This document shows positions 11,892-16,600 of a stretch of DNA of 25,638 nucleotides, piece after piece. Position 1 is the first letter of the stretch. Every line of letters starts with the position of its first letter. Source of the stretch: a virus (Duplodnaviria > Caudoviricetes); IMG/VR virus record IMGVR_UViG_3300038335_000075, positions 1-25,638 of that record; one strand, 5' to 3'. Made by a program: the position numbers and the translations under genes. The notes beneath the pieces were generated by a model. The model was not told the origin of the DNA, did not search any database, and was given only the letters and a program-made list of their open reading frames with translations.

Positions 11892-11954
11892 AAGAAGAAG
11901 GCTCCGATGCTTTACGCCAAGGAGCTCTTATGTACTATGCAATTTTGTAACGGA

Positions 11955-12791
11955 TTATAGTAAACTATCTAATATTTCCCTTATGGTTATACAGACATCG
12001 CTGTACTGGATATCTTTTGCATAATCAAATTGATTTTGATAATCAATCCAATGGTCTTTCATGATGTCACTTGTTTCAATTGTCTGTAGAATCTCATGGT
12101 ATTGATCAAAAAGCAAAAGTGTATTTCGGCTTTGTGCAGTTGCTGTTAGTGCGGCGTGAAGAGAGACAGGATTAATATTCTGCCATTGCAGCTGACGAAT
12201 AATGTAAATATCATAATAGTCTCTTGGGCGTGTGTTCTGATCTCCTCTAGAAATCACAGTTTCCAGTTTTTCCGCGATGATGGTTTCAAGGTTATATGCT
12301 AACACCTGAATGTTTCGTGGTTCGAGGAGAAGCCTAAATTCGTAGACTATCTCTCGAGGCGTAATTATATCACCGGTAGTAATATCTATCTTCAAGGGTA
12401 CTCTCATTGGAGGATACTTCGCCTCAAGAGTAATGCGCAGTCCGGCATAGTCTGAACTTTCTCGTATTTCCTCAGTGCGTTTGAGGGAAAAAGTGACATC
12501 ATCGTTCAAGGGGATATTGCATATTTCTTCAAACACTTTTGTGATTGTCTCAGCATTTACTGGCAAGCCACGAAGCGTTGTATCCATATCCATGGTCGCT
12601 CGCGTGTCTAGACCAACCATGGCTGCAATTAAAAAACCTCCTTTTAGAATGAAGTTGGATTTGTAAGGAGATATGGATATGCGCTCCAGTAAACGCTCCA
12701 GCATATAGTTTTGCATAATAATTTGAGCGGATATATTCTTGCTCTTTGCCATATTTCTGATAACAGCTTTTAGCTGCATTGCGTTGTTCAT
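11955..12791 (-). CDS. abiEii: AbiEii/AbiGii-family nucleotidyltransferase toxin (type IV TA)
   Basis: FILKGG...RATMDMD, KIDIT, AEKL, RPRDYYD motifs; ATGA-coupled to upstream antitoxin. Confidence 0.92.
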   Translation of the reverse strand: MNNAMQLKAVIRNMAKSKNISAQIIMQNYMLERLLERISISPYKSNFILKGGFLIAAMVGLDTRATMDMDTTLRGLPVNAETITKVFEEICNIPLNDDVTFSLKRTEEIRESSDYAGLRITLEAKYPPMRVPLKIDITTGDIITPREIVYEFRLLLEPRNIQVLAYNLETIIAEKLETVISRGDQNTRPRDYYDIYIIRQLQWQNINPVSLHAALTATAQSRNTLLLFDQYHEILQTIETSDIMKDHWIDYQNQFDYAKDIQYSDVCITIREILDSLL

Positions 12792-13381
12792 AGCAAGACC
12801 TCCAAGTAAGAACGGAGCTTTTCTTCAACCCTAAAAAGCTTTGCGTATTTTGAAAGCAAGGGAATGTTTTTTTTGTCTAAGCGGGCATAACGATTAAATG
12901 CATCTGTCACAATTTGGATTTCTGTGGCGCTACGGCCTTTTAAGATATCGCAAAGTGTTCTTTCAGCATTATAATGCTTGACGTCATTACCGCCGGGAGA
13001 TTTAGCAGTGATAATACCAACCTCGTAGAGATCTTCTTTGACTCGATAGTATTTGACATTTTCGTAGTTTAGCGCAGTTGTGTTATATCCAAGCGGAAAC
13101 GTCATGGAATATTTAATTGGAGTACGGTCAGTTAAATCTAACAAGAAAAGAGCAGTTTCATGAGAGAAAATTCCTCGCTTGAACCGCATTTGAAGATTAA
13201 ACATTTCATCATCAAAAATTGCAGGGATAATATATACGCCACGTGTTGAAGGTTCAAGCAAGCCTTTTTTGACAAGAACTCTTATATGTTCACGCAAAAT
13301 ACCGGCTTCTGTTACTTGTGATGTAGTGACTACTCCGTTGTTATTGTGGGCTATTTTAAGAATCTGTTCGCCATAATTCAT
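12788..13381 (-). CDS. abiEi: AbiEi-family antitoxin / autorepressor (type IV TA)
   Basis: N-terminal winged HTH ending RGVY, SHETAL-x-LLDLTDRTP, ERTLCDI; RBS GAGGTG. Confidence 0.92.
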   Translation of the reverse strand: MNYGEQILKIAHNNNGVVTTSQVTEAGILREHIRVLVKKGLLEPSTRGVYIIPAIFDDEMFNLQMRFKRGIFSHETALFLLDLTDRTPIKYSMTFPLGYNTTALNYENVKYYRVKEDLYEVGIITAKSPGGNDVKHYNAERTLCDILKGRSATEIQIVTDAFNRYARLDKKNIPLLSKYAKLFRVEEKLRSYLEVLL

Positions 13382-13415
13382 ATGTTCTCACCTCAAATCA
13401 TATTAAACTTTTTCA

Positions 13416-13462
13416 TTGACTTCCATGCACACAATTATAATAAAAGAGTGCATGGAAGTCAA
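13416..13462 (-). promoter_or_regulatory. abiE promoter embedded in a perfect 15-bp inverted repeat operator
   Basis: TTGACTTCCATGCAC-N17-GTGCATGGAAGTCAA; minus strand reads TTGACT (13462-13457)-17 nt-TATAAT (13439-13434). Confidence 0.85.
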
Positions 13463-13496
13463 CGTAAGTTTTATAAACGGTTAATATTCCTTTGAA

Positions 13497-13542
13497 GATG
13501 AGAAAAACGTGAGATGAAATTTACTTTTAAAGGTCATATAAT
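13497..13542 (+). promoter_or_regulatory. Candidate activator-dependent late promoter
   Basis: TATAAT at 13537-13542, weak -35 ATGAAA 17 nt upstream, TGAGA direct repeats 11 bp apart (13499, 13510); upstream of packaging HNH. Confidence 0.5.
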
Positions 13543-13569
13543 AATAACATAGAGAACTGTAAAAAAACG

Positions 13570-13603
13570 AAGGCTCCCAGGCGAAACCGCTTAGGGGCTT
13601 TTT
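13570..13603 (+). terminator. Terminator-like hairpin upstream of packaging HNH
   Basis: AAGGCTCCCAGGCG-AAAC-CGCTTAGGGGC followed by TTTTT. Confidence 0.55.
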
Positions 13604-13650
13604 AATGTACGAATAAGGCAATAAAAGGTGAAAAAACGAGGTGAAACCTA

Positions 13651-14122: not shown

Positions 14123-14136
14123 GCGAGGTGACGCTA

Positions 14137-14637
14137 ATGCCCAGCGGAGGCTACCGTCCGGGTGCAGGCCGCCCTCGGAAGAATCCAATCGACAAAAAAC
14201 TAGAAGGTAAATCAACAGTCAGCAAAGCAACCCCAAAACCGACTGTCAAAAAGCTCGCAACTCAAAATGTCATGGCTGGCTATTTCGGTGTGGCAATGAA
14301 GGAATGCGAAAAGGAAGTACCCTCAGCGGAAATTCTACGAAACGAAATTGAGGAATACATCGCGGCTCGCGGTTGCGACGGCTTGGTCGCTCCGCAGACG
14401 ATAACAGACTATGTGCTGAATAGGCAAGGTTTCCTCGCCTGCGAAGCGATGAACCGTAAAATCGGACGTATGACCAAGGAACTGAAGCTCTCACCCTACG
14501 TCACAGCAGGCGCAGGCTATTACAAAGCGATGCAAGCTGACTTCAACCTGATCATGCAAATCATCAATCGCTTCAGCAGCAATCAGAACGACGAGAAGAA
14601 CGCCTTCTTGGAACTACTCACGAACAGGGGATTTTAG
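14137..14637 (+). CDS. terS: Terminase small subunit (divergent, P27-like)
   Basis: N-terminus MPSGGYRPGAGRPRK typical of TerS; SPYV motif; position after HNH; ATG 14137 after GAGGTG. Confidence 0.72.
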   Translation: MPSGGYRPGAGRPRKNPIDKKLEGKSTVSKATPKPTVKKLATQNVMAGYFGVAMKECEKEVPSAEILRNEIEEYIAARGCDGLVAPQTITDYVLNRQGFLACEAMNRKIGRMTKELKLSPYVTAGAGYYKAMQADFNLIMQIINRFSSNQNDEKNAFLELLTNRGF

Positions 14638-15074
14638 ATAACCATACCAACTCTTGCCATTTTATCAGCTATGTTGTTAAACTCAACATCAGAATGCGCC
14701 TTAACTTTGACAAAGCGAATTCGCATATTCATGCGCTTACGCTCAATAAATTCGGCGTACTGAATGTAGCATTGGCAGCCTTGATGACGAGGCTTTAAGT
14801 TAGACTTGTCTGCGAAGTACGCCAGCCCATCCCAGTCGTGATAAATGGTTAGATATGTGACACCAAGTGATCTTGCAGCTCTAATTGCAGTTTTGACAGC
14901 ATTAATCTCCGCAATATTTGCACCATATTTATTTAGTTTTGAGTACTGTCGCTGAAAGGCGATTCGATGCGGACGATGGTTTTGATTGGTAATCAGTATC
15001 ACTGCCGATCCCGCGGAACTTGTCTGGGGCTTGAAACTGCCGTCAACATATGCTCTTGCCTTAAGTTTTGCCAT
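14634..15074 (-). CDS. Ribonuclease HI-like protein (catalytic domain only)
   Basis: All four carboxylates and the His loop present: YVDGSF, NIAEINA, IYHDW, KVKAHS...NNIADKMA; strong AAGGAGG RBS. Confidence 0.9.
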   Translation of the reverse strand: MAKLKARAYVDGSFKPQTSSAGSAVILITNQNHRPHRIAFQRQYSKLNKYGANIAEINAVKTAIRAARSLGVTYLTIYHDWDGLAYFADKSNLKPRHQGCQCYIQYAEFIERKRMNMRIRFVKVKAHSDVEFNNIADKMARVGMVI

Positions 15075-15093
15075 ATATTTTCCTCCTTAACTA

Positions 15094-15260
15094 AAATGCA
15101 GCCGTTAACCGTCAAATAGACTTATTCAGTCATTTGACGGTTAGCGGCTGCATTTGAAATGCCGAAGGCGGATATGAGGAACTCGGATCCTTAAGCCTTC
15201 GAAGAACGGGTGGTAGCCAGTGACCGTTCCGCGCCATAGCAAGCACTCATGTATTTGCTA
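15094..15260. ncRNA. Multi-hairpin non-coding element upstream of RNase H gene
   Basis: Hairpins at 15094-15155 (24-bp arm with one mismatch plus 4-bp inner stem), 15163-15201, 15204-15229 and 15237-15260; candidate minus-strand promoter TTGCCA (15308-15303)-17 nt-CAAAAT (15285-15280). Confidence 0.55.
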
Positions 15261-15343
15261 TACATATTTATCTAATTTTATTTTGCCACACATTCATATA
15301 TTTGGCAATCACATTCAACTTCATTTTATTCGGAGGTATTTAC

Positions 15344-16600
15344 ATGCAGACTACAGAACGATTTGAAAAGGTGGACATCGATCGCCTTGTCCCATACGCG
15401 AGGAACGCCCGCACTCACAGCAAGGAGCAGATTCTGCAGCTTCGCTCTTCGCTCCGTGAGTTCGGATTCGTCAACCCTATCATTGTGGATAGGGAATTGA
15501 ATATCATTGCGGGACACGGGCGGGTACTTGCAGCCAAAGCCGAAGGTTTATCGGAATTGCCGTGCGTGTTTGCAGAGCATCTGACTGATGCTCAGAAACG
15601 CGCTTATATCTTGGCTGATAACAAACTCGCCTTGAACGCTGGTTGGGACGAGGAACTATTAGCTCTCGAATTCGGTGAATTAAAAGACCTCGGTTTCGAC
15701 CTTGAACTCACCGGCTTCGGCCTGGACGAGATCGAAAAGTTGTTTGCTGCTGATGGCGGTGACGTACATGACGACAACTTTGATTTGACAGCCGCCCTTG
15801 AGCAGGCGGCTTTTGTTTTGCCGGGCGATGTGTGGACCCTTGGACGACACAGGCTGATTTGTGGTGACGCCATCAAGGCAGACACCGTCAAAAAACTAAT
15901 GGATGGCCGAAAGGCAAACCTCATCCTAACGGACCCGCCGTATAATGTGTCCTTCGAATCAGCCAGCGGGTTAAAAATCAAAAACGACAATATGGCGGCG
16001 GAGCAGTTTTACATTTTCCTGCTCTCAGCATTCAAGTGCTTTTACGAGAACCTTGCCGACGGCGGGGCTTTTTACTGCTTCCATTCGGATTCAGAAAAGG
16101 TGAATTTCTTCCGCGCATGCGTAGATGCAGGCTTTCACTACTCCACAACTTGCATTTGGGTGAAAAATGCTCTTGTACTCGGACGCGGCGATTACCAACA
16201 GATGCACGAGCCGGTACTGTACGCCTTCAAAGATACCGCTAAGCACAAATGGTACTCCGATCGTAAACAGACCACAATTTGGAACTTCGACAAGCCGAAG
16301 AAGAACAACGACCATCCGACAAGCAAGCCACTGGATTTGTTGGCGCATCCTATAACAAACAGCAGCCAGGCAAACGCCATCGTGCTGGACACCTTTGGTG
16401 GCAGCGGCTCAACACTCATCGCCTGCGAGCAGCTTGACCGGACCTGCTATATGCTCGAACTCGACGAAAAATACGCAAGTGTCATCCTGCGTCGCTACGC
16501 CGAATTCAAGCAGAGTAGCGGCGATGATATCACCTGTGAGCGCGATGGAGAAACGCTCCACTATGCAGATTTGGTAAAGCAGGTCGCCAGCCGCGAGTAG
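15344..16600 (+). CDS. ParB/Srx-domain N6-adenine/N4-cytosine DNA methyltransferase (beta class)
   Basis: ParB-like N-terminus (PYARNARTH, IIAGHGR, ILADNK); catalytic TDPPY, HPTSKP, SAM-binding DTFGGSGST; ATG 15344 after GGAGGT. Confidence 0.92.
   Translation: MQTTERFEKVDIDRLVPYARNARTHSKEQILQLRSSLREFGFVNPIIVDRELNIIAGHGRVLAAKAEGLSELPCVFAEHLTDAQKRAYILADNKLALNAGWDEELLALEFGELKDLGFDLELTGFGLDEIEKLFAADGGDVHDDNFDLTAALEQAAFVLPGDVWTLGRHRLICGDAIKADTVKKLMDGRKANLILTDPPYNVSFESASGLKIKNDNMAAEQFYIFLLSAFKCFYENLADGGAFYCFHSDSEKVNFFRACVDAGFHYSTTCIWVKNALVLGRGDYQQMHEPVLYAFKDTAKHKWYSDRKQTTIWNFDKPKKNNDHPTSKPLDLLAHPITNSSQANAIVLDTFGGSGSTLIACEQLDRTCYMLELDEKYASVILRRYAEFKQSSGDDITCERDGETLHYADLVKQVASRE

Follow-up and report, generated by a model that had tools for sequence, protein, structure and literature searches.

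A conserved structured RNA element strictly paired with its own clade of small RNase HI-fold proteins, a candidate type III-like cassette in prophages

A folded RNA element and a stand-alone RNase HI gene lie together as a cassette in the window, the whole stretch of 25,638 nt of viral DNA analysed here. The element is a conserved, apparently uncatalogued RNA family that is strictly paired with its own RNase HI clade. The proteins form a small, basic and phylogenetically supported clade with intact catalytic residues. By analogy with described systems, this mobile two-part cassette of a folded RNA and an RNase HI-fold gene might work like a type III toxin-antitoxin pair, a reading that we rank first and place close to, and still short of, an even chance. 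We are equally tentative on the mechanism, in which the RNA of ~180 nt would bind and block the basic RNase H and decay of the RNA would release the nuclease. An earlier note on this DNA had spoken of an undescribed RNase H moron with a dedicated upstream RNA element, a description supported by 18 of 19 loci and the lack of an Rfam match. The terms defence, decoy and RNA-controlled, also used there, name putative roles of the cassette.

The window reads as a Bacillota-type prophage with replication genes, an HNH gene, a presumed terminase small subunit (terS), a ParB-methyltransferase, terL, portal and capsid, where all but the last two were assigned by ORF reading and Pfam. A gene set similar to that of the window is described for the heliusvirus lineage, and the words RNase and ribonuclease are absent from the available part of that paper (PMC11283538). 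The whole inserted cassette spans 14638-15343 on the minus strand, 706 nt from the terS stop to the methyltransferase ATG. Both flanking phage genes are located outside the cassette on the plus strand. The presumed terS (14128-14637) had no match in Pfam or PHROG and resembles the Terminase_4 gene of locus L165 with weak similarity (27%, E 2e-7). The ParB-N6/N4 DNA methyltransferase (15344-16600) starts with the ATG at 15344, and the GGAGG ahead of this ATG is supplied by the cassette edge. A methyltransferase lies downstream within the locus in 78 of the 80 viral loci that contain a related terS, and the two genes are directly adjacent in 62 of these 78 junctions, compared to 706 nt apart in the window. 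The same cassette was found in 1 of the 78 junctions as well as in one of the two left-out loci, where the contig ends just after. Family loci in unrelated contexts share only a stretch from ~-215 to +443 around the ATG, ending at the stop codon. The promoter, element and ORF thus appear to travel as one mobile unit of ~660-700 nt, with no third gene.

Six of the 78 junctions (L237, L238, L239, L253, L254 and L264) carry an unrelated sense ORF of 218-235 aa in the slot of the cassette, which is Cys-rich and homing-endonuclease-like by eye. The RNase H stop abuts or overlaps the stop of a convergent gene in the window (14634-14637), L165 (2273-2276) and L166 (8438-8441). These are three different settings, with two terS types and a SAM synthetase, and no terminator lies between the stops. 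A late transcript of the plus strand would cross the whole cassette in antisense.

The gene itself (14634-15074, minus strand) is an intact stand-alone RNase HI gene antisense between terS and the methyltransferase, as the earlier note had stated, and matches Pfam RNase_H with an E of 7e-9. The protein of 146 aa combines an RNase H fold with the D-E-D-(H)-D catalytic set expected of RNase HI (D11, E56, D80, H127 and D137). The AlphaFold2 model (mean pLDDT 89) shows an RNase HI fold, with a TM-score of about 0.6-0.75 against solved RNase HI structures. The homodimer prediction scored 0.29 (mark 0.42). A single-sequence search returned 15 close proteins (53-99%), followed by a fall to about 30%. 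A profile search identified 85 clusters at E <= 1e-20, counting proteins of 79-266 aa only. In the 50% library, a profile run against 1.84 billion representatives found five at E <= 1e-30, and a reverse transcriptase (RT) domain was absent from all 18 top matches scanned there. The alignment set consisted of 80 near-full-length members after five fragments were dropped, of which 66 are 143-149 aa long. Catalytic residues are kept almost throughout, with D11, D80 and D137 in 79/80 members each and E56 and H127 in 80/80. The dN/dS among relatives was 0.08-0.29 in 11 of 12 pairs, with one pair saturated and two having dS >2.

In the tree, 23 family rows fall on one side of a branch and 38 other RNase H rows on the opposite side (support 99/91). 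The median net charge of the family is +10 (n=80). It is -2 over the C-terminal 140 residues of hybrid-binding-domain-type proteins (n=49) and +1 among the short RNase H proteins closest to the family (n=19, range -8 to +14). Housekeeping Bacillota RNase HI of the hybrid-binding-domain type (PDB 2kq2) and stand-alone phage RNase H (phrog_531) share the fold and the D-E-D-H-D set. The family is about 30-36% identical to them and is set apart by its separate clade, the lack of an N-terminal binding domain, a much more basic charge and the dedicated upstream RNA. An origin from hybrid-binding-domain RNase HI was rejected as the tree does not nest the family there, and a transposase or RNA-guided homing system was rejected given the RNase HI fold and the absence of a guide-length loop. 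PADLOC had no match for 3/3 family proteins, NCBIfam matches of family proteins were far under the cut-offs, phage and plasmid collections held only RNase H of 26-35% identity, and the ESM Atlas held ordinary RNase H clusters only. Residue C100 of the window protein is a cysteine in 78/80 members, located beside a basic K-x-R-H motif, and no equivalent was noted for ordinary RNase HI.

The conserved structured element at 15090-15273 (minus strand) is predicted to be an RNA of ~180 nt and forms a new family (model R1) defined by alignment and a covariance model. The hairpins outlined in the earlier note were recovered as P1 (15261-15236), P2 (15230-15203), P3 (15201-15163) and P4 (15155-15094), all on the minus strand. 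P1 is a 5' hairpin of variable sequence and the weakest helix of the element, with 79% of cells paired and two-sided change in 5/7 pairs. P2 consists of a 7-bp stem, a 4-nt 5' bulge, a 3-bp stem and a short loop (96-98% paired, 8/10 pairs with two-sided change), and the third base of the bulge is A in 18/18 sequences. P3 consists of a 7-bp stem, a 4-nt 5' bulge (mostly UUAA), a 4-bp stem, a 2x2 loop and a 3-bp stem (95-98% paired, 10/14 pairs with two-sided change), and is like P2 in shape and not in sequence. P3b (15150-15162, minus strand) is a 5-bp hairpin between P3 and P4 (94% paired, 3/5 pairs with two-sided change). P4 is a hairpin of 22-28 bp which together with its T-tract covers 15093-15155 (94% paired, 13/22 pairs with two-sided change), and its 24-nt arms are 96% complementary in the window. 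Base 15144 of P4 is in a C-A mismatch in the window and paired in the near-identical L163. Loops and bulges of the element are 3-9 nt long. The absence of tandem repeats held up, as a repeat search within the RNA found no repeat family. The minus strand has a folding z-score of -6.9 and the plus strand of -7.7, with 0/200 shuffles as good.

P4 is predicted to act as a leaky intrinsic terminator. The long hairpin had been described as ending in TTTT, and the four T are present, whereas a terminator scan made no call. The T-tract directly after P4 has about 5-7 T in most homologues of a second subgroup and 4 T, partly paired, in the window. Termination is therefore plausible in the window and probably leaky. 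In the syntenic chromosomal copies (L005 9859-9986; L299 1363-1501), the gene starts ~85-130 nt past the RNA end rather than about 15, and the first RBS of L005 leads into a very short ORF.

The conserved upstream structure expected from an alignment and covariation check is present, with the element upstream of the gene in 18 of the 19 family loci read (45-99% protein identity to the window) and its pairs covarying. All of the first 12 loci (the window and 11 others, 45-99% protein identity) carry it. From a plain MAFFT alignment of these 12 loci, RNAalifold predicted 51 pairs, 28 of which changed on both sides. Among 609 cells, 95.1% pair, compared to 83.9% in column shuffles (0/500 as high) and 31-46% with partners slid, figures that overstate independence because the structure comes from the same alignment, the loci are not independent, and two-sided changes mostly fall on the divide between two subgroups. 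The blind search with the covariance model is a stronger test than the alignment statistics. It placed the element before 6 of 7 family genes found later by protein search (E 1e-41 to 2e-13). L303 represents a third, divergent type within this blind set and kept every helix and both 4-nt bulges. In the sole miss, L302, the promoter, element and initial ~20 codons with D11 have given way to unrelated sequence. One deletion may have removed the RNA and the gene start together, so that L302 supports strict pairing weakly. An alignment of 18 sequences, which leans toward the structure as it was fitted to the model, has 93.4% of cells paired and 39 of 58 pairs covarying.

In the loci searched, the element occurred together with the gene. 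A control on 94 of 199 loci gave full-length matches in 12 family loci only, and 82/82 other RNase H loci had no full-length match (one partial, E 0.13). Among the 80 terS loci, the element matched only in the two with the gene (one further match, E 0.27) and had no full-length match in the 78 lacking the RNase H gene. Three viral DNA-pattern scans, based on exact patterns and insensitive, returned known contigs only and no RNA without the gene. A comparison with Rfam, as had been suggested, returned no family at gathering score and only sub-threshold matches to miRNA-type hairpins. RNA and protein diverge in parallel (identity correlation r 0.91, 0/5000 permutations), which is expected from physical linkage alone.

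Which strand is folded in the cell bears on the role of the element. The earlier note had found G-U pairs to favour folding of the plus strand, which is true of the window copy only and is reversed across 12 homologues (62 G-U versus 9 A-C cells). The mRNA-sense strand has the lower folding energy in 11 of 12 homologues, with the window as the exception. The G-U bias and the sense-strand energies together point to selection on an RNA with the same orientation as the RNase H gene.

A predicted sigma-A promoter precedes the element at 15280-15308 (minus strand), with a -35 TTGCCA (15308-15303), a TG (15288-15287) and a -10 CAAAAT (15285-15280). The spacing TTGCCA-17-CAAAAT had been noticed before, and the extended -10 bases are kept across homologues. 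The TG and A2, A5 and T6 of the -10 are invariant in 12/12 homologues; the -35 is not conserved. The window promoter taken alone is not above chance (5 sites versus 2.3 +/- 1.9 in shuffles). Transcription is predicted to start (+1) near 15273. The AAGGAGG ribosome-binding site reported after the long hairpin is present at 15088-15082 (minus strand), with GGAGG invariant in 12/12 homologues, and no promoter-like site was called between the terminator-like hairpin and the RNase H gene. The type III order of promoter, RNA, terminator and protein gene on one strand was found in 18/19 loci, where promoter and terminator are sequence predictions, and supports the earlier choice of type III toxin-antitoxin loci as the nearest analogy. 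A promoter-like site on the plus strand, TTGCCA-18-TAAAAT (10 of 12 bases; 15068-15097), lies over the RNase H start and is aimed antisense into the RNA element. Run X1, possibly DNA, yielded six short contig pieces, none of them inside the RNA element.

The cassette is rare and its range patchy, with presence in 1/101, 1/38, 5/301, 4/149, 1/399 and 1/301 genomes, where the centre genome is counted every time. The genome and metagenome scans covered 21/64 and 16/64 parts, respectively, and the matches from both are to be read as at least that many. The cassette precedes the methyltransferase in the prophages of the window and L163-L166, adjoins a prophage integrase in L167 and L296, and has stayed intact where the phage flanks have decayed (L003 and L006, the latter from a cultured, harmless isolate). 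Plain chromosomal settings exist too. L005, L298 and L299, all from one family, share one syntenic site among housekeeping genes and look more like a domesticated gene. ShosTA-like genes directly follow the cassette in L084, and the candidate defence gene PDC-M03A with an HTH partner directly follows in L083. A raw count by reading, with no background rate, found a specific defence-like or toxin-antitoxin-like gene within about 6 kb in 8/18 neighbourhoods (window, L083, L084, L163, L165, L166, L297 and L300) and none in 10/18, based on selected ORFs per locus and leaving out L164. Such neighbours weakly support the toxin-antitoxin reading. At least four genes beside the cassette of L003 (3039-9362), including ATPase-like and radical SAM genes, are located at an RNA methyltransferase integration site. 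These genes mostly have no Pfam or PADLOC match and possibly form an undescribed defence island.

A type III system of this kind would depend on a sigma-A promoter producing an abundant RNA of ~180 nt that mostly stops at P4, and on rare read-through of P4 for expression of the nuclease. With its bulged hairpins P2 and P3, possibly also P4, the RNA would dock on the basic substrate face of the enzyme and block it. Once transcription stops, because a phage infects or the element is lost, the RNA would decay and leave the nuclease free to cut RNA in hybrids or duplexes. Abortive defence or retention of the element would be the outcome. Cleavage of dsRNA is reported for one archaeal RNase HI in the available part of PMC9719913.

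Several observations favour the type III reading. The RNA and the gene are strictly paired (18/19 loci, 6/7 in the blind set), and the sole locus without the RNA, L302, has also lost its first ~20 codons with D11. P1-P3 are kept far beyond the needs of a terminator, yet no antiterminator or leader peptide was found. The protein is basic, the range is patchy, and the cassette is intact amid decayed phage flanks. The full-length element is missing from 82/82 other RNase H loci and from 78/80 terS loci, those without the gene. Another RNase H gene is present in 2/4 host genomes tested, and ShosTA-like genes (L084) and PDC-M03A (L083) are direct neighbours. The reading is weakened by the lack of a PADLOC match, the lack of repeats, the weak T-tract in the window's subgroup, the syntenic chromosomal copies and the 10/18 neighbourhoods without a specific defence or toxin-antitoxin gene. 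We know of no ordinary RNase HI that acts as a toxin, which counts against the reading as well.

Among known systems, RCd22-AbiF is a type III pair of the C. difficile prophage phi027, for which the available part of the report (10.1101/2025.04.15.648962) gives a start site 168 nt before the ATG, read-through that supplies the toxin and an RNA that neutralises the toxin in trans. As far as that part goes, both RCd22-AbiF and the cassette appear as Bacillota prophage cargo with a sigma-A promoter, a structured RNA of 100-200 nt, an intrinsic terminator, an RBS and a nuclease on one transcript, and both place two stem-loop units ahead of the terminator. AbiF belongs to the HEPN RNases in the accessible text of PMC13064643, whereas the cassette protein has an RNase HI fold. 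The RCd22 RNA is reported to contain two copies of the abiF motif (RF03085), whereas the cassette RNA has no Rfam family and its P2 and P3 share shape only. The function of AbiF is demonstrated in the part of the report available (10.1101/2025.04.15.648962), whereas that of the cassette is putative. AvcID offers a possible parallel, in which a non-coding RNA restrains a housekeeping-type enzyme, a deoxycytidylate deaminase, until a shut-off of transcription releases it. The enzyme and RNA are different, though, and no terminator is predicted between avcI and avcD in the available sections (PMC10511110). This precedent indicates that type III toxins need not be ToxN-like.

ToxIN/AbiQ, CptIN and TenpIN share with the cassette the order of RNA, terminator and RNase. 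Antitoxins of the ToxIN type are pseudoknotted, and ToxN processes its own antitoxin. The antitoxins of ToxIN/AbiQ, CptIN and TenpIN are tandem repeats of 34-50 nt, as given in the accessible part of 10.1101/2025.04.15.648962. The cassette differs from ToxIN, CptIN, TenpIN and AbiF by the absence of tandem RNA repeats, by an RNase_H rather than a ToxN-like or HEPN protein, and by the lack of a known Rfam antitoxin motif and of a PADLOC match. Judged by sequence, the cassette would be a member of no described type III family.

In the main rival to the type III reading, which we consider rather unlikely, the element would act in cis as a 5' leader and only adjust how much of a benign accessory RNase H is made, likely through feedback. 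Binding or cleavage of the leader by the enzyme would tune read-through of P4 or translation, and the task of the enzyme would be to remove R-loops or primers on behalf of the prophage or host. The constant location of the element directly 5' of the gene on the same strand, the terminator-like hairpin at its end, the canonical RNase HI fold and residues and the syntenic chromosomal copies are all consistent with such a leader. In the window's subgroup, P3b cannot form together with the base of P4, yet this competition is missing in the second subgroup and is the only, local sign of the conserved alternative fold or leader peptide that marks a riboswitch or attenuator. No conserved antiterminator emerged (0/24 tests better than 11/60 shuffles), nor was a conserved leader peptide or small ORF found. 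Such a leader stands before 0/82 other RNase H genes, and the second RNase H gene in two of the four hosts argues against this rival too.

It is improbable that RNA and protein form an active ribonucleoprotein, with the RNA as a scaffold, activator or substrate-selecting partner rather than an inhibitor. The strict one-to-one pairing with parallel divergence, the basic protein without a hybrid-binding domain and the two similarly bulged hairpins would all suit a ribonucleoprotein. Loops and bulges of 3-9 nt leave no variable single-stranded guide, however, and linkage would by itself produce the correlation. Even less probable is a metal or metabolite riboswitch controlling the RNase H gene. 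The 5' position, the terminator-like end and the conserved bulge bases fit a riboswitch, but there is no Rfam match and no switching structure, and the loci and genomes that were searched have it upstream of no other gene type.

Highly improbable, finally, is a retron-like msr-msd RNA or decoy, copied in trans by a host RT, with the RNase H maturing or destroying the product; the adjoining RNase H gene and the order of short hairpins and then one long hairpin upstream of a gene, as in msr-msd (available part of PMC7736814), are outweighed by the missing RT and a1/a2 pairing, the terminator-like end and the G-U bias favouring the RNA strand. Retrons are characterized in that part by an adjacent RT and complementary a1/a2 ends (PMC7736814). 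The doubt already voiced about an a1/a2 repeat was justified, as the 5' end paired with the region after P4 better than shuffles in 0/12 loci (best 11/60). No RT was found among the neighbour ORFs scanned, which extends the earlier observation on the window to the neighbourhoods. PF00078 (RT) had no match in 7/10 genomes or records and matched only on contigs other than that of the cassette in three, in a set of mostly incomplete assemblies with one provirus record and one isolate genome. The retron reading of the earlier note was thus rejected, also given that selection acts on the RNA-sense rather than the cDNA-sense strand. A decoy role is improbable but conceivable, as most of the assemblies are incomplete.

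In the literature, mostly open and with two motif catalogues covered in part, we found no RNase H with an upstream RNA, antitoxin or leader. The available part of a review on lactococcal systems names AbiI alone, which has an RNase HII domain (PMC13064643), and RNase H is unmentioned in the main text of one motif catalogue (PMC5737381, in part). The catalogue of PMC8040213 was covered for the first few of its 165 RNase H rows (34-39-nt motifs), so that a prior listing of part of the RNA is possible. The cassette could be the first RNase H with a dedicated RNA partner, and with it a new class of RNA antitoxin with an RNase HI-fold toxin and a repeat-free, bulged-hairpin RNA as substrate mimic, which seems conceivable if on balance doubtful. 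It would then provide a naturally occurring RNA that inhibits RNase H at its active site, open to structural study, and a counterpart, built on the RNase H fold, of the AbiF systems, proposed ancestors of Cas13. Should the RNA prove inhibitory, a further toxin fold would join the type III toxin-antitoxin systems. The milder reading still amounts to a new family of covarying RNAs associated with a single clade of enzymes.

Further RNase H genes and cargo were observed along the way. RNase H matches on Lactococcus plasmids adjoin RnlAB and have no RNA element. There, the RNase H is located directly before RnlAB (L197 2812-5219; L198 2812-5216), and an RNase H-RnlA fusion protein (P0189) is among the profile matches. 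The slot upstream of HNH holds differing cargo in related prophages, with AbiE in the window (11892-13650), a RES-domain gene in the near-identical L163 (1883-2587) and an RmrA-like gene with a partner in L165 (3791-5356). The antisense abiEi-abiEii pair of the window (13381-11955) has a long inverted repeat upstream at 13397-13479. The repeat encloses TTGACT...TATAAT and is thus probably an operator over the promoter, presumably that of AbiEi, rather than a second RNA.
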